A stretch of DNA of 32,000 nucleotides from Desulfocapsa sulfexigens DSM 10523 (lineage in GTDB: Bacteria; Desulfobacterota; Desulfobulbia; Desulfobulbales; Desulfocapsaceae). Each line of letters begins with the position of its first letter. The stretch's first letter is position 1. Below, piece after piece: positions 6,821-24,214 of this stretch. The notes under the pieces are model-generated. The model saw only the letters and a list, made by a program, of their open reading frames with translations. It was not told the origin of the DNA and made no database searches. The stretch covers positions 3,090,001 to 3,122,000 of the forward strand of contig NC_020304.1 of assembly GCF_000341395.1 (NCBI RefSeq), in the 5' to 3' direction. The translations under genes and the position numbers were made by a program.

Positions 6821-7180
6821 TTAACAACCAACAGTTAGTTTTTTCTCGATTTTTACAGCCGTTGGTGTGTCGCTACCAGTGGAATGCCAGATCTTTACCT
6901 TATCCCCTTTCTCAATTTCTTTTGGTGAAGTGTAGCCAACCAGAACAGTGTTCCAGTCAAGAAGAATGGTGCTTTTTTCGCCATTATTCAGTTGCAGGAG
7001 GATGGACTGTTGTTCAGGGTTGAACTGTTTGATTTTTCCCTCAATAAGTTGCACATCAGAACTCTCAGCAACGACGTTACTGTCGTTTCCTGCAGCAACA
7101 ATGGTGGCGGGGATAAGAGAAATAAGAAGGGCAAATACTATAAGATATAACGAAGTGTGTTTGCATATGGAAAGTTTCAT
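6821..7180 (-). CDS. Small exported hypothetical protein (119 aa from the internal ATG)
   Basis: The ATG at 7180 has GGAGAA 6-7 nt upstream. It starts a signal-peptide-like N-terminus (MKLSICKHTSLYLIVFALLISLIPATIVAA). The longer 7216 start lacks an RBS. Confidence 0.55.
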   Translation of the reverse strand: MKLSICKHTSLYLIVFALLISLIPATIVAAGNDSNVVAESSDVQLIEGKIKQFNPEQQSILLQLNNGEKSTILLDWNTVLVGYTSPKEIEKGDKVKIWHSTGSDTPTAVKIEKKLTVGC

Positions 7181-7291
7181 AGGTGTTCTCCTGTAGCTAA
7201 ACTTTTCTAAAGACAACGTATTCAGGTAGTGAAAGATATTCCCTTAAAGCCGTTGTGATAGCTATACTATATGACCTGCTGCCACATTGTG

Positions 7292-13416: not shown

Positions 13417-15744
13417 ATGAAGATACGGAGTATTATTTTTCTGATTGTTATTGCATTAGGTCTTTTTCCTGTACTCTTTCTTGTTGCTCTTAATTTACCC
13501 AAAACCATGGAAAGATTAGAATATGCGGCAGAACTTGAAACTCAGGCCAGATCCCAGGTGGGGTTTACTCAGCTGAATGCCCGTATACTCTGTTTGAAGA
13601 AAAGTCTTATTCGTTCCGCGACACTTCCCTCCGTTTATGCAGCGATTGAAGATTCATCCGGAATACCTACTTTGTCAAATGTTGTGAAGAGATGGTTTGA
13701 GAATGATGAACAGGTAAAAGGTATGATGCTTTTCAATGCTGATGGAGTCGAACTTCTTTCCCTGCATAGAAAAAACAGTCACTTTGCCCCATCTGATTTT
13801 TCAGAAAATCATAAGGACCACCTGTTTTTTAATCAGTCGCTGCAGGTACCCGATGACCAGGTATTGGTCAGGTTGGTCGATCAGGAAACAGATCCCTTTC
13901 ATCGTACCGGTAAAGAAGAATATGAACTGATTATGTCGACTCCAGTTATCCTGGATAGCGCCGTCGGAGCTATCGGTATTATGTTGATGCGTATTGACAT
14001 GTCACATTTTTTAACAAATTTCACAGATTCTTACTGGGTTACAGGTGACGGCAATTATGTCCGTGGTTGTGTGGCTGACAGTGAATCATCGGATAGAGAT
14101 TCTGGTGAGATCAGTGATTCCTGTAATGCTTTTGATGAGTTTCCCGATCTTAACAGAAGCGTATCCAGAGATCCTATTATATTGTCTGGAAATGATAAAC
14201 GAAAAATAGCCTGGGTTCCTTTGGTCTTCAATAAGGAACACCACGTTGTGATGTGGGTTGGAACGCTGATTGATGACAGTGCAATAAAAAAATGGAAGAT
14301 GACACTTACCGTAAATGTTATTGTGCTCATTGTTGTAATGACCATTCTTGTTTTTATTGCCGCAAACTGGATCTCTGCTAAAATTGAAATTCTTCAAAGG
14401 GATCTCCTGACACGGCTCGATGATATTATAAATAAAGAAAAACGGATCGATTTCCATTGGGGCGGACCTCTGGAATTGCAGAATTTATCACGTGATCTTA
14501 CTGCATTCTCTGAACGCTACAGTTTAACCTGTGAGGCTAGAAACCTTGCCGAAGCCTCTCTGAGTGAAAGCGAAGACAAATTTCGAAGTCTTACCGGATC
14601 TGCACTTGACGGTATAATCCTCATGGATAATGAAGGATATATAACCTATTGGAACGAGGCAGCTGCTACAATATTTGGCTATAGTCCTGAGGAAGCCCTT
14701 CAACATCCCATCCATTCGCTGATTAATCCTCGCCGTGAAGGAGAGGATCTGTCAGTGGAACCCCTGGAAACCGGAAAGTCGGCAGAGAGTTTATCACAGA
14801 CCGTTGAGCTTATCGCACGAAATGAAAAAGGAGATGACGTGTATGTGGAACTTTCACTGTCATCAACTACCATCAAAGGAAAGTGGCATGCCATCTGGAT
14901 CGTCAGGGATATCAGTGAACGGAAGAGGAGTGAGGATGAAACAAGAAAACAGCAGCAGCAACTTCTCCATGCAGATAAGATGATTTCTCTTGGACTTCTT
15001 GTGTCAGGGGTTGCCCATGAAATTAATAATCCCAACTCTATTGCTCTTTTGAATACTCCGATACTCTTTCGTGCCTGGGAGAGTGCAAAGCCTATTTTGG
15101 ATGAGTTTTTTGAAGAAAATGGAGACTTTTCCATCGCTGGCCTGGATTACAGGGAGATGCGTCAACAACTTCCTCGCATATTTTTAGAACTCGAAGAAAG
15201 TGCTCAGCGGATCAAGCAGATTGTTATGGATTTGAAAGATTATGCCAGACAGGAGACCAGTGGCCAATTGGTACCCGTTGATATCACAGAGGTCGTTAAA
15301 TCCGGTATTCGCTTAACATCAAATACCATTCATAAGAGTACCAATAAATTTATAACTCATTTTTCTCCAACACCTCTTATGGTTCTTGGTAATAGGCAAC
15401 GTCTAACCCAGGTTGTTATTAACCTTATTCAGAATAGCTGTGAGGCTCTTGAAACAACAGACATGTCCCTTACTATTTCAACCCGTTATAATAAGGAAGT
15501 TGATGGTGTGGAAATTTCTATAAAGGATGAAGGCACAGGAATAGCCCCTGAGAATTTAAAACAGGTAACAGATCCATTCTTTACGACAAAACGGTCAATT
15601 GGCGGGACAGGATTGGGACTTTCTGTCTCAGCTGGAATAGTTAAAGAACATCACGGAGTAATGGATTTTAAATCTGAGTTTGGAAAGGGGACAGAGGTTG
15701 TTATCGTTTTCCCTGCGTGCCCCGCAGAGAGTAAGGAAAATTAA
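13417..15744 (+). CDS. Sensor histidine kinase (TM, large extracytoplasmic domain, TM, PAS, HisKA, HATPase_c)
   Basis: N-terminal TM (IIFLIVIALGLFPVLFLVAL), a ~270-aa putative periplasmic domain, a second TM (VNVIVLIVVMTILVFIAANWI), a PAS domain (GIILMDNEGYITYWNEAAATIFGY), H-box GVAHEINNPNS, N-box LIQNSCEAL, and G-boxes DEGTGI and GGTGLGLS. Confidence 0.9.
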   Translation: MKIRSIIFLIVIALGLFPVLFLVALNLPKTMERLEYAAELETQARSQVGFTQLNARILCLKKSLIRSATLPSVYAAIEDSSGIPTLSNVVKRWFENDEQVKGMMLFNADGVELLSLHRKNSHFAPSDFSENHKDHLFFNQSLQVPDDQVLVRLVDQETDPFHRTGKEEYELIMSTPVILDSAVGAIGIMLMRIDMSHFLTNFTDSYWVTGDGNYVRGCVADSESSDRDSGEISDSCNAFDEFPDLNRSVSRDPIILSGNDKRKIAWVPLVFNKEHHVVMWVGTLIDDSAIKKWKMTLTVNVIVLIVVMTILVFIAANWISAKIEILQRDLLTRLDDIINKEKRIDFHWGGPLELQNLSRDLTAFSERYSLTCEARNLAEASLSESEDKFRSLTGSALDGIILMDNEGYITYWNEAAATIFGYSPEEALQHPIHSLINPRREGEDLSVEPLETGKSAESLSQTVELIARNEKGDDVYVELSLSSTTIKGKWHAIWIVRDISERKRSEDETRKQQQQLLHADKMISLGLLVSGVAHEINNPNSIALLNTPILFRAWESAKPILDEFFEENGDFSIAGLDYREMRQQLPRIFLELEESAQRIKQIVMDLKDYARQETSGQLVPVDITEVVKSGIRLTSNTIHKSTNKFITHFSPTPLMVLGNRQRLTQVVINLIQNSCEALETTDMSLTISTRYNKEVDGVEISIKDEGTGIAPENLKQVTDPFFTTKRSIGGTGLGLSVSAGIVKEHHGVMDFKSEFGKGTEVVIVFPACPAESKEN

Positions 15745-15768
15745 AATAAACTATACGAAATAGAGATC

Positions 15769-17187
15769 ATGGTTAAAACTTTGTACCCAACATTACCGGT
15801 TTTATTGGTGGATGATGAAAATGCCTGGCTGAACAGTTTTGGACTGACTCTTCAGGTTGCCGGCATTAATAATATAGTGACTTGCAACGACTCCAGAAAA
15901 GTTATGGAGTTGTTGCGTGCTCAGGCCATAAGTGTTCTGGTTCTTGATCTTACCATGCCACACCTTGCAGGCGATGAACTGTTGCCTCAGGTGGTTCTTG
16001 ATTTTCCTGAAGTGCCGGTAATCATTATTACTGGTTTGGATCAGGTTGAAACGGCTGTCTCCTGCATGAAACTCGGGGCTTATGATTTTTTCACAAAAGT
16101 TACCGAAGAAGAACGTTTAGTAACCGGAGTTAAACGGGCAATTACTTTTGGTTTGTTGCGTCGTGAAAACAGTTCGTTGAAGGAGCATTTCTTAAAAGAT
16201 GAACTCCATAATCCCGATGCGTTCTCCCATATTATTACTCATAACAAATCTATGCGTTCAATTTTCCAGTATATTGAAGCCATCGCTACAACTGGTGAGC
16301 CGGTTTTAATAACTGGAGAAACAGGATCTGGGAAAGAACTATTTGCCCAGGCAATTCATTCACTTTCTGGGAGAGCCGGCGAGTTTGTCGCTGTGAACAT
16401 AGCAGGACTTGATGGAACAATGCTTGCGGACACACTCTTTGGCCATAAAAAGGGGGCCTTTTCAGGGGCTGATCAAAGCCGCAAGGGCCTGATTGCCACT
16501 GCGACCGATGGCAGTCTTTTTCTCGATGAAATTGGTGATCTTACTGCCCAATCACAGGTTAAACTTTTGCGCCTGATACAGGAACGGGAATATTATGCAC
16601 TTGGCTCTGACATTGCTCTAAGTACTAATGTACGCATGATATTTGCTACTCATCAAAACCTTGATTCATTGCAGGAGTCAGGGGAGTTCCGTAAAGATCT
16701 TTTTTTCAGGCTTCGAACGCACCATGTGCATATTCCACCTCTTCGTGAACGTCTGGATGACCTGCCGTTACTTTTAGATTATTTTCTGGACGAGGCAGCG
16801 AGCCGATTAAATAAGGCAAAACCTGCCTACCCTAACGAGTTACCTATTCTTTTGGGAACGTATAATTACCCTGGGAATGTTCGAGAATTGCAATCAATGG
16901 TTTTTGATGCCCTTTCTAAGCATCGCAGTCGAACACTGTCAATGGATGTTTTTAAAAAGTATATAGAGAGCAGAATGGGAACAGCCAATGATATTGAAGA
17001 AGAGGTGACTGGCGAAACAGTGTTCAGTATACTTGGAACCCTGCCTACCCTGAAAGCATCCGGGCGCTTACTTGTTAAGGAGGCATTGCACAGATCGCAG
17101 GGAAACCAGGCTATTGCAGCCCAAATGTTAGGTATTACAAGGCAGGCTCTTAATTGGCGGCTGAAGCAACAGTCTGAAAAAGACTAA
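15769..17187 (+). CDS. Sigma-54-dependent response regulator (REC, AAA+, Fis-type HTH; NtrC family)
   Basis: REC domain with the phospho-acceptor context VLVLDLTMP. Walker A GETGSGKE, Walker B LFLDEIGD, the sigma-54 contact loop as GAFSGA, and a C-terminal HTH (NQAIAAQMLGITRQALNWRLK). It lies 24 nt after the kinase gene. Confidence 0.92.
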   Translation: MVKTLYPTLPVLLVDDENAWLNSFGLTLQVAGINNIVTCNDSRKVMELLRAQAISVLVLDLTMPHLAGDELLPQVVLDFPEVPVIIITGLDQVETAVSCMKLGAYDFFTKVTEEERLVTGVKRAITFGLLRRENSSLKEHFLKDELHNPDAFSHIITHNKSMRSIFQYIEAIATTGEPVLITGETGSGKELFAQAIHSLSGRAGEFVAVNIAGLDGTMLADTLFGHKKGAFSGADQSRKGLIATATDGSLFLDEIGDLTAQSQVKLLRLIQEREYYALGSDIALSTNVRMIFATHQNLDSLQESGEFRKDLFFRLRTHHVHIPPLRERLDDLPLLLDYFLDEAASRLNKAKPAYPNELPILLGTYNYPGNVRELQSMVFDALSKHRSRTLSMDVFKKYIESRMGTANDIEEEVTGETVFSILGTLPTLKASGRLLVKEALHRSQGNQAIAAQMLGITRQALNWRLKQQSEKD

Positions 17188-17204
17188 AAAACGGGGAGGC
17201 TCTT

Positions 17205-17465
17205 GTGGAAAGAATAGAGTGTCTAATAGAAGGATATATACTGGACTTTGAGCAGGCAAGGGAACTTGGCCGAGTTATAGCAGAAAAAGAAAATGACTTT
17301 GCAACTCTTGTTTCATGGTGTGATCGTGACAAGGGGGTGCATTCACCCTGTTGTCTCAAATGTGAACTGAAAGGGGAGCCGGGATGGGAGGTATATGGGC
17401 GGAATCATGAAGGGCGATTAAGGATCTCCGTAGATAGTGACAGGTTTGTCTTTATCTATTCATAG
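17205..17465 (+). CDS. Hypothetical 86-aa protein (GTG start)
   Basis: GTG at 17205 is preceded by GGGGAGG with a 5-nt spacing, 17 nt after the response-regulator stop. It contains HSPCCLKCE. No family recognised. Confidence 0.4.
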   Translation: MERIECLIEGYILDFEQARELGRVIAEKENDFATLVSWCDRDKGVHSPCCLKCELKGEPGWEVYGRNHEGRLRISVDSDRFVFIYS

Positions 17466-18454: not shown

Positions 18455-20695
18455 TTAAGCTGGAATATCCAGAACCTTTCCATTTTTGATCAATTTAACA
18501 AAGTTATTTCTCATTCCGTGACATCCGGTTTCAGGGTCAACAGCCAGTTTGGTGATAAGAGAAGTGTCATCTACACCAGCGCCAACACCTATTGTCATAA
18601 GTGGATTGGCACTACCAAAACCGTGGTACATATAAACACAGTCTTTTCTGATACCGGCAGTGACTTTCACTGTGGTGGTGGTAGCGGATTCAACTCCCTC
18701 ACTGTTTACAAAACCAACAGTATCGCCATCAATGAGACCAATTTTCGCGGCAACCTCATCATTCACCCAAACAGGGTTGTCAGGCATGGCATTGTGGAGC
18801 CATACGTTATTCTGACTTCTGTTGAAGGTATGAACAGGGGCACGTCCGTACAACAGTCTGGCAAATCCCTTTGGATTGTCAGGGACTGGTATATAGGTTG
18901 GTGCTCCCGGATGTCCGGTATCAGCGATATCTTCGTTGAAAAGACGGACTTCAAATTCTTCCGGGATTCCGTATGGGTCTTTGCCTGGCTGAATATGGAT
19001 GCCATCTTCAGCTTTCAGTTTCTCAATTGAGAGATTTACAGTGGCCAGGTTCTTGTCAACCATTTCTTCCATGGTTTTTACAGGAATTTTAGCCTCGTGG
19101 CCCATGCGTTTGGCAATTTCATTGGTGATGTAGATCTGATCCTTACGTTCAAACATAGGTGGAACGAGAGGCATACGGGCAGAAATGTACTGCTGATGCT
19201 CCTTGGAGAGATCCCATTGTGTTCCAGTCTTGATATAATCGTAACGCTCAAGATAACTTGCTTCAGGCAAGAGAATGTCAGCCCACGCAGTTACGTCAGT
19301 TGGCATAACATCAACACACATGACGAAATCCATGGCGTTGAAGAGATCTTTCATCATCTGCTGATTTGGGATGGTCTGCATTGGGTTCTGACCCCACACA
19401 ACACAGCTTTTGATTGGGTAGGGTTTGCCTGAAATAGCACAGTCCCGAATGAGGTCGGTTGGGGTTCCAGGGGGATTGTAAGGATAAACCTTTTCGTCCT
19501 CATGATGATCATAATTGAGATCATACTTATGACCATGATCCTCTTTCTTCCAGCTTACACCGCCTACCTTTGGTCCTTTTGCTGGAACCCAGCCACCTTT
19601 TACATAGTAGGCGCCAAGAATTCCGGTGAGACAGGCAAGTGCACGCTCGCGTTGGAAGTCATTTCCATGCCATGAAACGTGACGGCCTGGATGGATTGCG
19701 ACATTTGGCGCATTGGCTGCAAGCATCTCAGCAACTTCTTTGATCTGAGCAGCTGGAATATCACATTCCTTTGCAGCTTTTTCTAAGGTCCATTCTTTTA
19801 TTGATTCAGCAAACTGCTCAAAGCCATCGGTATGATCTTCAACAAACTCCTTGTCATACTTATCGTTCTGTACCAGGTAATTCATGATGGCAAGCATGTA
19901 GGCAGTGTCTGTGCCAGGTTTGATCTGAACCCAGATGTCAGCCTTTGCAGCAGAAGCTGAAAAACGAGGATCAGCAACAATCAGCTTAGCTCCATTTTGC
20001 AAACCTTGAATGTACTGTTTGATGTGAGAAACATGAATGTTTTCACCAAGATGGTCTCCAATAAAAAAGAGAACTTTGGTGTTTGGCATATCAATTTTTT
20101 CACCGGGGGCTTTGCCAATGGTGGCAACGTATGCGGTGTCACGAATACCGCGACACTGAAAAAAAGAAGCCTCGGAGACATTGTGAGTTCCTACGGCACG
20201 CTCAAAATAGTGCATGGGGTATTTTGCTGAAGCACCATGTGGAAAAACACAGATACCTTGAGCACCATATTGATCAACGGTATTTTTCAGCTTGGAGCCA
20301 CATTCATCAAGTGCCTCTTTCCAGGAAATACGTTTCCACTTCGGGGCACCACGCTTTCCGACGTTTTTCATTGGGTACTTCAAACGGTCCACATCATAAA
20401 GCAGTTTAACACCTGCATTACCACGAGCACATATAGCAGTGCCGTTATCAATGGATTTTGGGTTTCCTTCGAGCTTCATCAGGCGGCCGTCACGAACTTT
20501 ACCGACCAGCTGACAACGCCAGAAACACATTTCGCAGATCCCACCCACAACGGTTTGATCGCCAGCAGTACCCGGTGTGTCGAGTGCTGATTTGGTGACA
20601 CCGGTGCTAGCGGAAACAACCTTCGACAGAGGTACCGAGGCTGCTGCCAGGGTTGCCGTCTGAAGGAATTTACGCCTCGTTAGGTTGAAAGCCAT
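18455..20695 (-). CDS. Tat-exported molybdopterin (Mo/W-bisPGD) oxidoreductase catalytic subunit, Psr/Phs/Arr/Ttr-like clade
   Basis: The ATG at 20695 has AGGAGG 9 nt upstream. Twin-arginine signal MAFNLTRRKFLQTATLAAASVP. N-terminal FS0 motif CEMCFWRC...C(ARG). A candidate Mo-ligand Cys in FFQCRGIRD. ~746 aa. No in-frame TGA. Confidence 0.88.
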   Translation of the reverse strand: MAFNLTRRKFLQTATLAAASVPLSKVVSASTGVTKSALDTPGTAGDQTVVGGICEMCFWRCQLVGKVRDGRLMKLEGNPKSIDNGTAICARGNAGVKLLYDVDRLKYPMKNVGKRGAPKWKRISWKEALDECGSKLKNTVDQYGAQGICVFPHGASAKYPMHYFERAVGTHNVSEASFFQCRGIRDTAYVATIGKAPGEKIDMPNTKVLFFIGDHLGENIHVSHIKQYIQGLQNGAKLIVADPRFSASAAKADIWVQIKPGTDTAYMLAIMNYLVQNDKYDKEFVEDHTDGFEQFAESIKEWTLEKAAKECDIPAAQIKEVAEMLAANAPNVAIHPGRHVSWHGNDFQRERALACLTGILGAYYVKGGWVPAKGPKVGGVSWKKEDHGHKYDLNYDHHEDEKVYPYNPPGTPTDLIRDCAISGKPYPIKSCVVWGQNPMQTIPNQQMMKDLFNAMDFVMCVDVMPTDVTAWADILLPEASYLERYDYIKTGTQWDLSKEHQQYISARMPLVPPMFERKDQIYITNEIAKRMGHEAKIPVKTMEEMVDKNLATVNLSIEKLKAEDGIHIQPGKDPYGIPEEFEVRLFNEDIADTGHPGAPTYIPVPDNPKGFARLLYGRAPVHTFNRSQNNVWLHNAMPDNPVWVNDEVAAKIGLIDGDTVGFVNSEGVESATTTTVKVTAGIRKDCVYMYHGFGSANPLMTIGVGAGVDDTSLITKLAVDPETGCHGMRNNFVKLIKNGKVLDIPA

Positions 20696-21260
20696 CTTTG
20701 TCTTCCTCCTTAGTAAAAAAATCAATTAATTGTACAACCACCCTATAAAATGGATGGTGAGCTCCTTTCGTTACCCTGGGGTGAAACTTTTTGTACCAGG
20801 GGCGAAACAGTTTTTTCAAGAACTCCTCTTCTCCGGAGAAGTCGTTTTCTTCGGCAAGAAGTGACAGGAATTCAAGTTCATGAATTAAATGGTCGGGCAG
20901 ATCAGCGCTTTTATCCATTTCAAAGCCTTTGGTATGGTAAAAGGCGAGAGTGTCGCCGGCAAATGTTCCCTGTAAAGATTGGTCCATGTATACGGATCCG
21001 TAAGGGGGTGCAACGACGTGAGGGACTCCATTGATAAAGAGTCTGGTATATTCGACCTGAAGGTCTTCGATTGCATCATCTGTATTGTCAATTGCTTTTT
21101 TGATGGCGATACCATCTTCAACGGCGTCTAAGGTTCCTAGAAAATTGTAGAGGACATTGAAGAATTCATCATTCATCCATTCTTGATCAGGGTACTGCAT
21201 GCACTGAGCAAGGAAACGGTAGACCCGGGCGATATCATTGGAAGGTTCAGTATCTAACAT
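20670..21260 (-). CDS. TorD/DmsD-family redox-enzyme maturation chaperone
   Basis: Typical features: EYTRLFINGVPHVVAPPYGSVY, LAFYHTKGF, PDHLIHELEFLS, and ~196 aa length. Its 3' end overlaps the catalytic-subunit start by 26 nt. Confidence 0.8.
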   Translation of the reverse strand: MLDTEPSNDIARVYRFLAQCMQYPDQEWMNDEFFNVLYNFLGTLDAVEDGIAIKKAIDNTDDAIEDLQVEYTRLFINGVPHVVAPPYGSVYMDQSLQGTFAGDTLAFYHTKGFEMDKSADLPDHLIHELEFLSLLAEENDFSGEEEFLKKLFRPWYKKFHPRVTKGAHHPFYRVVVQLIDFFTKEEDKDGFQPNEA

Positions 21261-21373
21261 GAGTTGTTATATTAAAAGCAGTAGTGTCAAAATAACCTGG
21301 TCTTGAAGAGTTATGTTGCATTAGAGAAACAGTGGTTTCATTCTTCAACTGTAATTGTCACAAAGTAGTGCCT

Positions 21374-21402
21374 AGCATAGCCACATGGAACTATCTTGTC
21401 AA
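21374..21402 (-). promoter_or_regulatory. Candidate sigma-70 promoter for the chaperone/oxidoreductase operon
   Basis: On the minus strand: TTGACA (21402-21397), 17-nt spacer, TATGCT (21379-21374), about 110 nt upstream of the ATG at 21260. Confidence 0.45.
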
Positions 21403-21657
21403 CGAATTGCTGCCCACTAGGCTTGAAAAAACAGGTAGTTGAGAATGATTTGCAATCCTGTGCCATCTGGTACCCTTAATTTTCTGTAAAAATTCATAAA
21501 AAACCTTCCAGTTACAAAGCCTGAAGTAAAGAACTTTCTAAACCTCAATGAGGAGGTTTGTAAAGTAAAATTGTCATGATTGGCGTATCTTGCCAGACTG
21601 TCAATGTGCGATATTTAAATAAAATCATACTTACAAGGTGATGAGGCCTTCTGGACC

Positions 21658-21699
21658 GGTGCAAAATAAATTGCTATCTGGTGCAAAAAAGTTTGCTAT
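21658..21699. promoter_or_regulatory. Two tandem 20-bp repeats, each with an internal dyad (candidate regulator/enhancer binding sites)
   Basis: GGTGCAAAATAAATTGCTAT (21658-21677) and GGTGCAAAAAAGTTTGCTAT (21680-21699), 17/20 identical with a 22-bp period. Internal dyads are GCAA-N6-TTGC and GCAAA-N4-TTTGC. They lie 100-140 bp upstream of the ATG at 21799. Confidence 0.4.
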
Positions 21700-21798
21700 T
21701 ATTTTTGTCATATGTTAGCAATTACACATAAGGGAATAAATGTAGTACTCAGGGCCTGGCAGGGTGGTTTTTGAAATATTTTGAAAGGGAGATTAAAA

Positions 21799-22161
21799 AT
21801 GAAAGGAAAAACAATTTGTTTTGCACTGGGGCTGATAACAATTTTGATTTCGGCGAATTCATTGATAGCAGAAGTTGTAGTAGATCCCACGTATTCAGAA
21901 ATTGATGGTGTTTATTTTTCTGATCCCTCTGTCAACTGTATTGAACTCAAAAACTCTGAGGCCTGCGAGATGTTTAAGGCTGAGGAAATTTATTCCTCAA
22001 GGGATGGAATTTCCTATTCAGATTGTACCATAGAATGTGAGGATATGCTTGAGAGTGATGCATGTTTCAGTTTTCGTGACACCTATCCATGTCCTGGGGA
22101 TTCAGATTCCCTAGTTGCCTCTTTGAGCTCTTTGGAAGACGAAAATCAAACTACAAATTGA
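21799..22161 (+). CDS. Small Sec-exported, acidic, Cys-rich hypothetical protein (120 aa)
   Basis: The ATG at 21799 has GGGAGA upstream. Signal peptide MKGKTICFALGLITILISANSLIA. The mature ~96 aa has 6 Cys and a large excess of Asp/Glu. No family recognised. Confidence 0.6.
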   Translation: MKGKTICFALGLITILISANSLIAEVVVDPTYSEIDGVYFSDPSVNCIELKNSEACEMFKAEEIYSSRDGISYSDCTIECEDMLESDACFSFRDTYPCPGDSDSLVASLSSLEDENQTTN

Positions 22162-22216
22162 GAACAAGTTTGTCATACTACTGCGACAATGTATAAAAAA
22201 TTCTGGGGAGAATAAA

Positions 22217-22633
22217 ATGACTCGAAAAAACATGTTAGTACTTACAGGGCTAGTGATTTTCACTTTTACAACTTGTCTTGCTTTTGCAGCAGAGGATGAG
22301 TGGAGTGATTATGACCCATGTGGCTGGAATGTTGAGAATGAAGGAGTTGGAACAGAGGATGTCGCAGAACTTCAGTGGACGGATTATGACCCTTGTGGTT
22401 GGAATGTTGAGGAAGCTGTGGATGGTTCTGTAGAAGTTGCTGAGCTTGAATGGACAGATTACGATCCATGTGGTTGGAATGTTGAGAATGAAGGAGTTGG
22501 AACAGAGGTTGTCGCAGAACTTCAGTGGACAGATTATGACCCCTGTGGCTGGAATGTTGAAGATGATACCATGAAGTCTGAGGTTGTCGAGGTGTTTGCT
22601 GCTGATACTATGGTAACGGGCTATATGAACTGA
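22217..22633 (+). CDS. Sec-exported acidic tandem-repeat protein (4 x W-[ST]-DYDPCGWNVE)
   Basis: GGGGAG lies upstream of the ATG. Signal peptide with an AFA|A cleavage site. Four 25-aa repeats follow. Synonymous codon differences inside the invariant core support real coding. No family recognised. Confidence 0.75.
   Translation: MTRKNMLVLTGLVIFTFTTCLAFAAEDEWSDYDPCGWNVENEGVGTEDVAELQWTDYDPCGWNVEEAVDGSVEVAELEWTDYDPCGWNVENEGVGTEVVAELQWTDYDPCGWNVEDDTMKSEVVEVFAADTMVTGYMN
22301..22561 (+). repeat. Intragenic 75-nt tandem repeat array (3 full units plus a 36-nt fourth core); units 1 and 3 form a 150-nt higher-order duplication
   Basis: Units start at 22301, 22376, 22451 and 22526, each with TGG. 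Unit 1 and unit 3 are 69/75 nt identical by my count. Confidence 0.9.
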
Positions 22634-22667
22634 TCACCTGTATTTATTATTGACCCTGTTCACATTC

Positions 22668-22740
22668 GGGATATCTGTTTTGTGCGTAGCTCCAGCCCTA
22701 AGTAACGGAGCTGGTCTCAAGAACAGTATCCCGTTTTTTT
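22668..22740 (+). terminator. Probable Rho-independent terminator after the two secreted-protein genes
   Basis: Long composite hairpin GGGATA(T)CTGTT ... AACAGTATCCC (22668-22732) enclosing an inner AGCTCC/GGAGCT stem, followed by GTTTTTTT (22733-22740). Confidence 0.55.
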
Positions 22741-22819
22741 ATGGCATGCTGGTGAGTAGTGCAACTGTGCTTGTTTGAGTAAGAGGAAATGTGGTTTTAT
22801 GTATGCTTCAGCCATGGTT

Positions 22820-24214
22820 TTAGTATGCTGATTTGTCAATAGTAATATTATGTTTTTTAAGGTGCTTCCAAAGAGTAACTCTGGAAATACCGAGAATCCT
22901 GGCGGCCTCTGATTTGTTTCCATTGGCAGCTTTAATGGCTTGCAGCAATTGTTCCCGTCGATTTTGGGATGTGCTGATTTGTGGGGTTCCAAAATGTCCC
23001 GCAGGTTGATTGTCTTTCTGAAATTGCTGAGGAAGGTGTTTAGGGGTAATTTCATCCTCGGGGCATATTACAAAAGTATATTCTATAACATTAATCAGTT
23101 CACGAATGTTTCCTGGCCAGTGATAGTCTACTAAAAGATCAAGGGCATCTTTTCGGATAGTAGTTATATCTTTTTCTATTTTAAGGTTGGCATTGTCGAT
23201 GAATGTTTTAACCAGAAGAGGAATGTCTTCCGGATGGTTTCTCAGTGGGGGGATAGTTATTGGGATAACGCCAATCCTGTAAAAGAGATCTTCCCTGAAT
23301 TTATGCTCAAGCATGAGAGTGTTCAGGTTTTTGTTGGTTGCTGAAATCACACGAACATCTATGGAAATTGGTTGATGGTCTCCAACACGTTCAACTTCCT
23401 GTTCCTGAAGAACTCGCAGGAGTTTGGTTTGCATGCTAAGAGGGAGATCACCGATTTCATCAAGAAAAATTGAACCTTTGTTCGCTGCCTCAAACCGTCC
23501 AGTTCTATCCCTGTCTGCACCCGTAAAGGCCCCTTTAGTATGGCCAAAAAGCTCACTTTCAAGAATGTTTTCGTTTAATGCGGCGCAGTTCACCTTGATA
23601 AAAGGAGATTTTGCGCGTCTGCTCAGCTTGTGGATTGCGCTGGCAACCAACTCTTTTCCTGTGCCACTTTCTCCATAAATAATAATTGGAGCATTGGACA
23701 AAGCTGCACTTTTAATGAGTTCGTACACCTGCTGCATGGTGGAACTGTTTCCAATAAGACCATGAAAGCTGTTACCACGATTAAGTTCTCTGCGGAGATC
23801 ACAGATCTCCTTTTCTTTGTCGATAACTGCAGTGAGGTCAGTGAGGGTCTCGACACCGGCTACGGTAACGCCACTTTTGTCAGTCAGAACCGTTGCATTT
23901 TTCAGGACTTCAACACGGGTACCATTCTTTTGCTTGAAAGAGCAGTGCAGGTCACTCACGTCTCCCTTTCTGAAGAGACTGCATCGTCTTTCCTTGTCCA
24001 CGACATCATGGCCGAAGCAATTGTCGCACTCCAGTATATCACAGGGTTGTCCAAGAAGTTCTTCTCTGCTGTAGTGGAGAAGATCTTCCAGTGCCCTGTT
24101 GACATACAGAATATTTCCCTGAACATCAACGAGCATGAGTCCTTCCTTCATTTTATCTACAACGTCTTTCCAGTTATCACAGAAGTAATCTTTAATCTTT
24201 TCTTTCTGTATCAT
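22820..24214 (-). CDS. Sigma-54-dependent transcriptional activator (PAS, AAA+, Fis-type HTH; no receiver domain)
   Basis: N-terminal PAS (GLMLVDVQGNILYVNRALEDLLHYSREELLG). Walker A GESGTGKE, canonical GAFTGA, Walker B IFLDEIGD, and a C-terminal HTH (KSEAARILGISRVTLWKHLKK). Confidence 0.92.
   Translation of the reverse strand: MIQKEKIKDYFCDNWKDVVDKMKEGLMLVDVQGNILYVNRALEDLLHYSREELLGQPCDILECDNCFGHDVVDKERRCSLFRKGDVSDLHCSFKQKNGTRVEVLKNATVLTDKSGVTVAGVETLTDLTAVIDKEKEICDLRRELNRGNSFHGLIGNSSTMQQVYELIKSAALSNAPIIIYGESGTGKELVASAIHKLSRRAKSPFIKVNCAALNENILESELFGHTKGAFTGADRDRTGRFEAANKGSIFLDEIGDLPLSMQTKLLRVLQEQEVERVGDHQPISIDVRVISATNKNLNTLMLEHKFREDLFYRIGVIPITIPPLRNHPEDIPLLVKTFIDNANLKIEKDITTIRKDALDLLVDYHWPGNIRELINVIEYTFVICPEDEITPKHLPQQFQKDNQPAGHFGTPQISTSQNRREQLLQAIKAANGNKSEAARILGISRVTLWKHLKKHNITIDKSAY

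Follow-up and report, generated by a model that had tools for sequence, protein, structure and literature searches.

What is a small exported cysteine protein doing beside a molybdoenzyme operon that has been linked to the disproportionation of elemental sulfur? How sulfur disproportionators activate S8 is an acknowledged open problem, and in the passages of PMC8780430, PMC9676032 and PMC12998232 that treat it the first step is described as unknown. The question can be put in a cultured model that makes its living by disproportionating elemental sulfur, Desulfocapsa sulfexigens DSM 10523: in a 32,000-nt stretch of its DNA (contig NC_020304.1, positions 3,090,001 to 3,122,000; hereafter the window, whose own numbering is used throughout), two exported Cys proteins are encoded divergently from a MOLY operon and have a conserved operator of their own. 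The MOLY cluster is a candidate marker for elemental-sulfur disproportionation that emerged from comparative genomics (Allioux 2022, Novak 2026; PMC9676032, PMC12998232), and its enzymes are predicted to be extracytoplasmic and proposed to process extracytoplasmic elemental sulfur; the published definition has three genes and does not include either a repeat protein or its gene (PMC9676032, PMC12998232). Such a gene, at 22217-22633 (plus strand), was identified here from its open reading frame and translation, and specifies an exported protein of 138 aa. As the foremost of several possibilities, and with well under even confidence, we propose that this repeat protein uses its thiols in the periplasm to carry or buffer zero-valent sulfur for MolyAB. 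We regard it as a testable candidate helper for the unsolved sulfur step, encoded beside the leading candidate enzyme.

A real gene with a selected core peptide

The reading frame at 22217-22633 is a real gene, with a ribosome-binding site, a signal peptide, a terminator hairpin and a peptide under selection. A Shine-Dalgarno-like GGGGAG (22205-22210, plus strand) can be read from the sequence 6 nt before the ATG, and the protein begins with what is by inspection a Sec-type signal peptide, MTRKNMLVLTGLVIFTFTTCLAFA (22217-22288, plus strand), with predicted cleavage after AFA. The window protein and all of its homologues have a basic n-region, a hydrophobic core (at least 12 residues) and a small-x-small cleavage site of the form A-x-A, and we see neither a lipobox nor a twin-arginine (RR) motif in the signal peptide, all of which points to export by Sec. 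We ruled out a lipoprotein, given that the lipobox is missing and that the homologues do not conserve the signal-peptide Cys. Downstream, a long stem-loop followed by U7 (22667-22740, plus strand; minimum free energy -29.5 kcal/mol, z-score -2.0) is the likely intrinsic terminator of an operon comprising this gene and the companion gene described below. An Rfam scan of 20500-23500 returned nothing real. Going by accession numbering, the gene should be AGF79325 (UWK_02794) of D. sulfexigens, between AGF79324 and AGF79326. A literature search found no mention of the motif DYDPCGW, the locus tags or the accessions, and a search for an omics study of D. sulfexigens found none.

The first-pass annotation of this DNA, made from the letters alone, described four head-to-tail units of 25 residues starting at 22301, 22376, 22451 and 22526, each with the core W-[ST]-D-Y-D-P-C-G-W-N-V-E, and this description holds. 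Tandem Repeats Finder (TRF) reports a 75-nt period with 3.5 copies at 22299-22560, and a degenerate DNA pattern for W-x-D-Y-D-P-C-G-W has exactly four matches in the 32 kb, at these units, and none in 100 shuffles. Unit 1 (22301-22375) consists of WSDYDPCGWNVE and an acidic spacer, and is followed by unit 2 (22376-22450), unit 3 (22451-22525) and the core of unit 4 with a C-terminal tail ending in G-Y-M-N (22526-22630; all on the plus strand). The further claim that a two-unit block of 150 nt was duplicated survives in part: units 1 and 3 are identical at 69 of 75 nt, but units 2 and 4 at only 49 of 75, and the two blocks at 118 of 150. The claimed composition is exact. After cleavage between AFA and AEDE, the mature protein has 114 aa with four Cys and eight Trp (one and two per repeat), one Lys and no Arg or His, for a mass of 12.8 kDa, a calculated pI of about 4 and a net charge of about -31. 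An antisense open reading frame at 22266-22469 is an artefact of the repeat.

Does selection act on the peptide or on the DNA? For this we compared 46 distinct units from about 15 loci (the window plus related loci and proteins; loci are denoted by L numbers and single proteins by P numbers), with the core numbered W0, D2, Y3, D4, P5, C6, G7 and W8. W0, C6 and G7 are present in all 46 units, D2, D4 and P5 in 45 each, Y3 in 42 (otherwise His) and W8 in 40. The core residues are encoded by every synonymous codon (four for Pro, four for Gly, and two each for Cys, Asp and Tyr). Because the core amino acids are constant across units while their synonymous codons vary, selection acts on the core peptide, which extends to the whole family the purifying selection first noticed among the four copies in the window. 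This codon-level evidence also rules out a non-coding repeat or CRISPR-like array. The two core Asp residues are never replaced by Glu in the 46 units, though the flanks swap D and E freely. At the other end of the protein, about 11 members terminate in Y-[MLVA]-N (the window protein, 22619-22630, and those of L001, L002, L007-L010, L016-L018 and P0013), while the C-termini of the remaining members differ; this ending could be a sorting or recognition tag.

The repeat protein belongs to no described family, as the first-pass annotation had supposed. Nothing significant was found in Pfam or NCBIfam, a profile search against the sequences in the PDB gave no match, and the weak Pfam matches obtained when three family members were tried (Phage_TAC_7, FBP_C and others) were below cutoff and inconsistent between members, and were dismissed. 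A word-indexed search of 5.8e9 proteins found five small homologues, and an exhaustive HMMER profile search of 1.84e9 representatives found 9-10 true members, of 51-126 aa, each with a signal peptide and 1-3 motifs. Three other profile matches (P0012, P0014 and P0015) are unrelated repeat proteins whose weak per-repeat matches sum over copies; P0014, for example, is astacin-like, has repeats of the beta-propeller type and is not a family member. A query made from a three-core consensus returned two small family members and no larger motif-bearing protein, in a search limited by the word index. Scans of genomes and metagenomes added loci L006-L015, and all four genome matches are metagenome-assembled genomes labelled Desulfocapsa sp. 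Across the family the number of motifs per protein ranges from one (L008 and L014) to five (L006 and L009). The single repeats of L008 (401-592) and L014 (477-668) have a Pro-to-Leu change in the core (DYDLCGW) and sit beside a remnant of the companion gene that is interrupted by stops; the locus gives the impression of being in decay.

AlphaFold2, run with a six-sequence alignment, gave the repeat protein a pLDDT of 51 and a pTM of 0.19. The signal-peptide helix (residues 3-20) reached a pLDDT of about 78, and the mature part, at 40-55, was modelled without secondary structure. With so shallow an alignment, this result is compatible with disorder of the mature part and no proof of it; we consider the mature protein probably unstructured.

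Companion gene, control region and the MOLY operon

Immediately upstream of the repeat gene is UWK_02793 (AGF79324; 21799-22161, plus strand), which encodes a second exported acidic protein, of 120 aa, with six invariant cysteines (C47, C56, C76, C80, C89 and C98). The two genes are separated by 55 nt and are probably co-transcribed. This companion protein is likewise an orphan, with no match in Pfam or NCBIfam, three database homologues and additional copies in L003 and L004, and its AlphaFold2 model has a pLDDT of 39. It is not homologous to the repeat protein, only the signal peptides aligning. The companion is a pseudogene fragment in L008 and L014, a remnant in L017 and absent from L001, L002, L006 and L016, in all of which the repeat gene persists.

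The region before the companion gene carries two conserved elements. Two tandem GGTGCAA-N6-TTGC palindromes, 22 bp apart (21658-21699, plus strand; detected by TRF as a 22-bp repeat), are a candidate activator-binding site for the companion/repeat operon. In most contexts, two or three copies of GGTGCAA-N6-TTGC(AC), spaced by 22-23 bp, are found upstream of the first gene, with single or variant copies in L001, L002, L017 and L018; in 213 kb of collected loci the motif occurs only upstream of the gene, save for four single matches scattered on the other strand. Half-sites such as TGCA are the sort of sequence that NtrC-family regulators bind. Closer to the promoter, a conserved box, GGGAATAAATGTAGTAC (21732-21748, plus strand; consensus GGAAAWAATGT[AG]GTAC), precedes the first start codon by 40-60 nt. 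Equivalents of this module of palindromes and box are present in L003, L004, L006, L007, L009, L010, L013, L016, L017 and L018. The module is kept in L016, far from any MOLY genes, and in L007 and L009, where the downstream neighbours are different, so the conserved operator belongs to the repeat gene itself. Neither side of the intergenic region has a conserved canonical sigma-54 promoter. A sigma-54-like TGGCAC-N4-TTGCA site, TGGCACAGGATTGCA, does occur at 21450-21465 (minus strand), about 190 nt upstream of MolyC, but it falls one base short of the canonical spacing, and even L010, which is 96% identical, does not conserve the exact site.

Across this region, and divergent from the repeat gene, is the operon that the first-pass annotation had called a Psr-like reductase and that can now be named more sharply. 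By Pfam and NCBIfam its first gene encodes MolyC, a TorD/DmsD-type chaperone (WP_015405009; 20670-21260, minus strand). Next comes MolyA (WP_015405008, AGF79322; 18455-20695, minus strand), a Psr/Phs-like molybdopterin subunit of 746 aa from its ATG with the Tat motif TRRKFL and the Pfam domains Molybdop_Fe4S4, Molybdopterin and Molydop_binding. Its best NCBIfam match is PhsA, at 443 bits, which is below the PhsA cutoff, and its best match in the PDB is the Thermus polysulfide/thiosulfate reductase PsrA (2VPW, E 4e-140). The mechanical reading frame of MolyA (18455-20725) starts with a TTG at 20725, but translation of the deposited protein and of every homologue begins with the ATG at 20695, from which MolyA overlaps the end of MolyC by 26 nt. 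The last gene encodes MolyB (WP_015405007, AGF79321; 17609-18418, minus strand), a four-cluster FeS subunit with Fer4_11 and Nitrate_red_del domains (Pfam/NCBIfam). All three window proteins are identical to WP_015405007-9, which are present in the seed files molyb_new.fas, molya_new.fas and molyc_new.fas of PMC12998232. By sequence, then, the operon is the MOLY cluster and is among its defining sequences.

No gene for an NrfD/PsrC anchor follows MolyB within the window. MolyB itself has a basic stretch followed by a terminal hydrophobic helix, DIGILGLAGAMLVKGL, and MolyAB may be tethered by MolyB alone. The operon is bounded by an opposite-strand gene for an AF1514/DUF5619 protein of 86 aa (UWK_02789; 17205-17465, plus strand), weakly similar to PDB 3C0F. 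This gene completes a trio beyond MOLY (13417-17465, plus strand) with a sensor kinase (dCache/PAS) and a sigma-54 response regulator (15769-17187), and in the window, L001, L006, L010, L017 and L018 it always lies between the response regulator and MolyB.

Candidate functions of the repeat protein

How would a thiol carrier of this kind work? A Cys thiol flanked by Trp, Tyr and Trp would attack S8 or polysulfide and would hold zero-valent sulfur as a persulfide or polysulfane, and the acidic spacers would keep the sulfur-loaded protein soluble. The sulfur might then be handed to MolyAB, accepted from MolyAB, or passed to inner-membrane importers. Seen this way, the repeat protein would be a non-rhodanese functional analogue of the secreted sulfurtransferases in Psr operons. 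We infer all of this chemistry, as we do the export of the protein, the disorder of the chain and the co-regulation with MOLY, the repeat protein and MolyAB being probably in the same regulon. The combination of a variable copy number (1-5) and a constant core fits a multivalent carrier, and in ten loci (the window, L001-L004, L006, L010, L013, L017 and L018) the repeat gene lies next to MolyC and is transcribed away from it. There are precedents for the parts of the model. Desulfurivibrio dismutans has a secreted sulfurtransferase with three rhodanese domains encoded in its Psr operon, which is strongly upregulated during S0 disproportionation (PMC12142623), Wolinella Sud depends on its single Cys according to the passage of PMC6378623 that cites Klimmek 1999, and soluble polysulfanes generated by thiols have been proposed as a route of S0 mobilisation (PMC6378623).

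Several findings weigh against the carrier proposal. The ten loci come from close relatives in which Dus, Tkt (transketolase), LptE and LeuS (LeuRS) are also syntenic, and because of this shared synteny the adjacency is weak as independent evidence of functional coupling. In two independent contexts, L019 and L020/L021, MOLY is kept, with MolyA at least 90% identical, and the repeat gene is missing, as are the operator and the kinase-regulator-DUF5619 trio; in L020 the promoter-proximal box survives only as degenerate copies. The trio and the repeat gene occur together in the window, L001, L006, L010, L017 and L018, and both are absent from L019-L021. The repeat gene is thus an accessory that is gained and lost with the two-component system; that MOLY can do without it follows from the relatives whose MolyA is at least 90% identical and in which the gene is missing. 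Conversely, L016 has its repeat gene in a region of polysaccharide and DNA-repair genes, a long way from any MOLY operon. Outside genomes labelled Desulfocapsa, neither the profile search of 1.84e9 representatives nor the genome scans turned up a homologue, and for this reason other MOLY-carrying disproportionators appear to be without the repeat protein, judging from these searches and not from direct inspection of their MOLY loci. Confined to a few Desulfocapsa lineages and dispensable in close relatives, it is at best a lineage-specific accessory and not a universal mechanism. The chemistry raises doubts of its own. Given a net charge of -31 and acidic residues near the Cys, HS- and Sn2- should be repelled and the pKa of the thiol should be higher; known carriers such as Sud and rhodanese bind sulfur within folded domains, in pockets that are cationic. 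At two motif positions the conserved residue is Asp and in no unit Glu, a pattern more suggestive of a requirement for a ligand or a turn than of a solubility feature. As a separate observation, two rhodanese-domain genes lie about 5 kb downstream of the repeat gene in L016 (15639-16961), a proximity that may be coincidental.

The objection to an acidic sulfur site, the Asp-specific conservation and the D1-x-D3-x-C5-G6-...-E12 spacing together make a metal site nearly as plausible as the sulfur carrier, doubtful as it is when taken singly. On this reading the repeat protein would bind a thiophilic or divalent metal cation at several EF-hand-like sites and fold as it did so. Each site would be the 12-residue loop D-Y-D-P-C-G-W-N-V-E-Q-E, with D1, D3, C5, G6, W7 (backbone O) and E12 as its key positions. 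The role of the protein could be periplasmic buffering of Fe(II), Zn, Cd or similar ions, or the capping of newly formed FeS at the point where, in cultures dependent on ferrihydrite, sulfide leaves MolyAB. The conservation suits such a loop, D1 and D3 being kept in 45 of 46 units and never replaced by Glu, G6 being invariant and position 12 being acidic in 41 of 46, although E12 lies in a generally acidic stretch, so that its conservation is weak evidence. The charge of -31 and the lack of a confident predicted fold in the apo chain also agree with it. There is also a probable likeness to lanmodulin (24-29-aa period, four sites, about 12 kDa) and, in the Trp after Gly, to engineered lanthanide-binding tags. 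The first-pass annotation had compared the core with a DxDxDG calcium-binding loop, a resemblance that holds at the level of the pattern but goes no further: the EF-hand, Excalibur, TSP3 and dockerin models gave no match at E<=10 with three family members, and the PDB contains no sequence relative. Moreover, loop position 5 is Cys, position 8 is not hydrophobic, an EF loop accounts neither for W0, which is invariant, nor for Y and P, which nearly are, and no metal transporter or resistance gene is found in any examined context. Both the thiol-carrier and the metal-binding readings are compatible with the data, and the two ideas could be combined, with a bound cation organising the loop and activating the thiolate. 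Taking the carrier proposal to its furthest, the repeat proteins would be a new class of disordered periplasmic sulfur shuttles with aromatic-Asp-Pro-Cys-Gly motifs, possibly cation-organised, that solubilise S8 as protein-bound polysulfane and feed the anchorless MolyAB and an oxidative branch. We consider this extension unlikely; if true, such a class would fill in the first step that is missing from the account of elemental-sulfur disproportionation in Desulfocapsa.

The shared gain and loss with the kinase-regulator-DUF5619 trio, while MOLY stays, suggests a rather improbable alternative in which the repeat protein is the periplasmic partner of the adjacent sigma-54 two-component system, binding or reacting with the inducer and modulating the kinase by the logic of ZraP-ZraSR and CpxP-CpxA. 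An NtrC-like palindromic operator with TGCA half-sites upstream of the gene in most contexts, and a kinase with a periplasmic dCache-like domain, agree with this; but L016 has the gene and the operator with no two-component system nearby, no canonical sigma-54 promoter is conserved upstream, a valency that varies from one to five motifs is unusual for such a role, and no sequence relation to ZraP, CpxP or Spy was found by Pfam/NCBIfam. Slightly less probable still, in our view, is a surface-active or mineral-binding coat, in which aromatic-thiol stickers and acidic spacers wet or disperse S8 or keep FeS off the cell without handing anything to an enzyme. The sticker-and-spacer composition, extreme acidity and lack of predicted structure would suit a coat, and S0 disproportionation without direct contact between cell and sulfur, reported in other species (PMC9676032, PMC6378623), favours it. 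The strict Asp-x-Asp-Pro-Cys-Gly conservation, however, suggests a defined site over generic amphiphilicity, and no export signal beyond Sec is evident, with nothing to place the protein outside the periplasm. A signal peptide followed by a variable number (1-5) of near-identical cores and variable spacers also recalls a multi-core precursor, exported and then cut to release cores, possibly cross-linked through Cys, Trp or Asp, as a small signal, chelator or cofactor peptide; fungal dikaritin precursors share this layout of signal, core and spacer. This alternative, raised in the first-pass annotation, has been weakened and is now the least probable of all. As had been noted there, no maturase is encoded among the genes of the window, and in about 15 contexts no radical-SAM enzyme, protease, cyclase or transporter is conserved beside the gene. 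The residues before the core vary (EDE, ELQ, EVE, EDK, DEP), so that the spacer ends offer no conserved cleavage site, and maturation of the QhpC type is cytoplasmic and based on a leader peptide, not on Sec.

Other neighbours and comparison with known systems

Further genes of the window bear less directly on the repeat protein. Downstream and convergent, at 22820-24214 (minus strand), is a PAS/sigma-54 enhancer-binding protein (AGF79326) that is found at many, but not all, loci of the repeat gene. Its PAS domain is unusually rich in Cys (CDILECDNCFGH...RRCSLF...LHCSF), a hint that its input may be redox state or metal/FeS. The window also contains the LeuRS gene (AGF79330), and at 6821-7216 (minus strand) a gene for a small protein without a Pfam match, which has an N-terminal hydrophobic segment and ends in ...KKLTVGC-COOH. 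A C-terminal Gly-Cys recalls sulfur-carrier arms such as those of DsrC and SoxY.

Known systems share single features with the repeat protein. Among small exported proteins associated with two-component systems, those of ZraP-ZraSR and CpxP-CpxAR are encoded beside and co-inherited with the system, as the repeat protein is with one of sigma-54 type. The latter differs in having no sequence or predicted structural similarity to ZraP or CpxP, a repeat architecture, and a redox operon between its gene and the two-component system. Multi-core precursors of the dikaritin and cyanobactin types, and QhpC for its Cys/Trp/Asp palette, likewise combine an N-terminal targeting peptide with cores and spacers; in contrast to these, the repeat protein has a Sec signal in place of a leader, no conserved cleavage site and no conserved maturase, protease or transporter.

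Among binders and carriers, EF-hand and DxDxDG loops have the spacing D-x-D-x-X-G-x-x-x-x-x-E in common with the repeat motif, and lanmodulin, like the repeat protein, is exported, acidic and roughly 12 kDa in size, its four sites recurring about every 25 residues. Taken as an EF-hand loop, the motif fits at positions 1, 3, 6 and 12 and fails at position 5, where an invariant Cys takes the place of an oxygen ligand, and unlike EF-hand proteins and lanmodulin the repeat protein has no predicted helix-loop-helix and no metal-related genomic context. SoxYZ is a periplasmic protein on which sulfur intermediates are held covalently by an exposed Cys next to Gly. Whereas SoxY has a single C-terminal GGCGG arm, a folded beta-sandwich and SoxZ as a partner, the repeat protein has 1-5 internal DPCG motifs, and there are neither Sox genes nor any homology to Sox proteins by Pfam/NCBIfam or PDB sequences.

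Closest in setting are Sud of Wolinella succinogenes and RS06465 of D. dismutans, which like the repeat protein are exported and encoded with a Psr-type molybdoenzyme. Both have one essential Cys per unit, RS06465 being multivalent with three domains, and both are proposed to deliver zero-valent sulfur to the reductase. They differ from the repeat protein in scaffold: by Pfam/NCBIfam the latter has no rhodanese fold (PF00581) and no CRxGx[RT] loop, and its units are 12-residue motifs in a chain without a confidently predicted structure. Its Cys is set among Asp, Pro, Gly and Trp, an acidic environment as against the cationic one of Sud and rhodanese, and its presumed partner enzyme, MolyAB, lacks the PsrC anchor. 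Based on these comparisons, the repeat protein may work in the manner of a Sud-like carrier or of a lanmodulin-like binder, and its sequence and setting suggest a carrier or binder that works through Cys in the periplasm and is attached to a Psr-type system, on a scaffold that would be without precedent.

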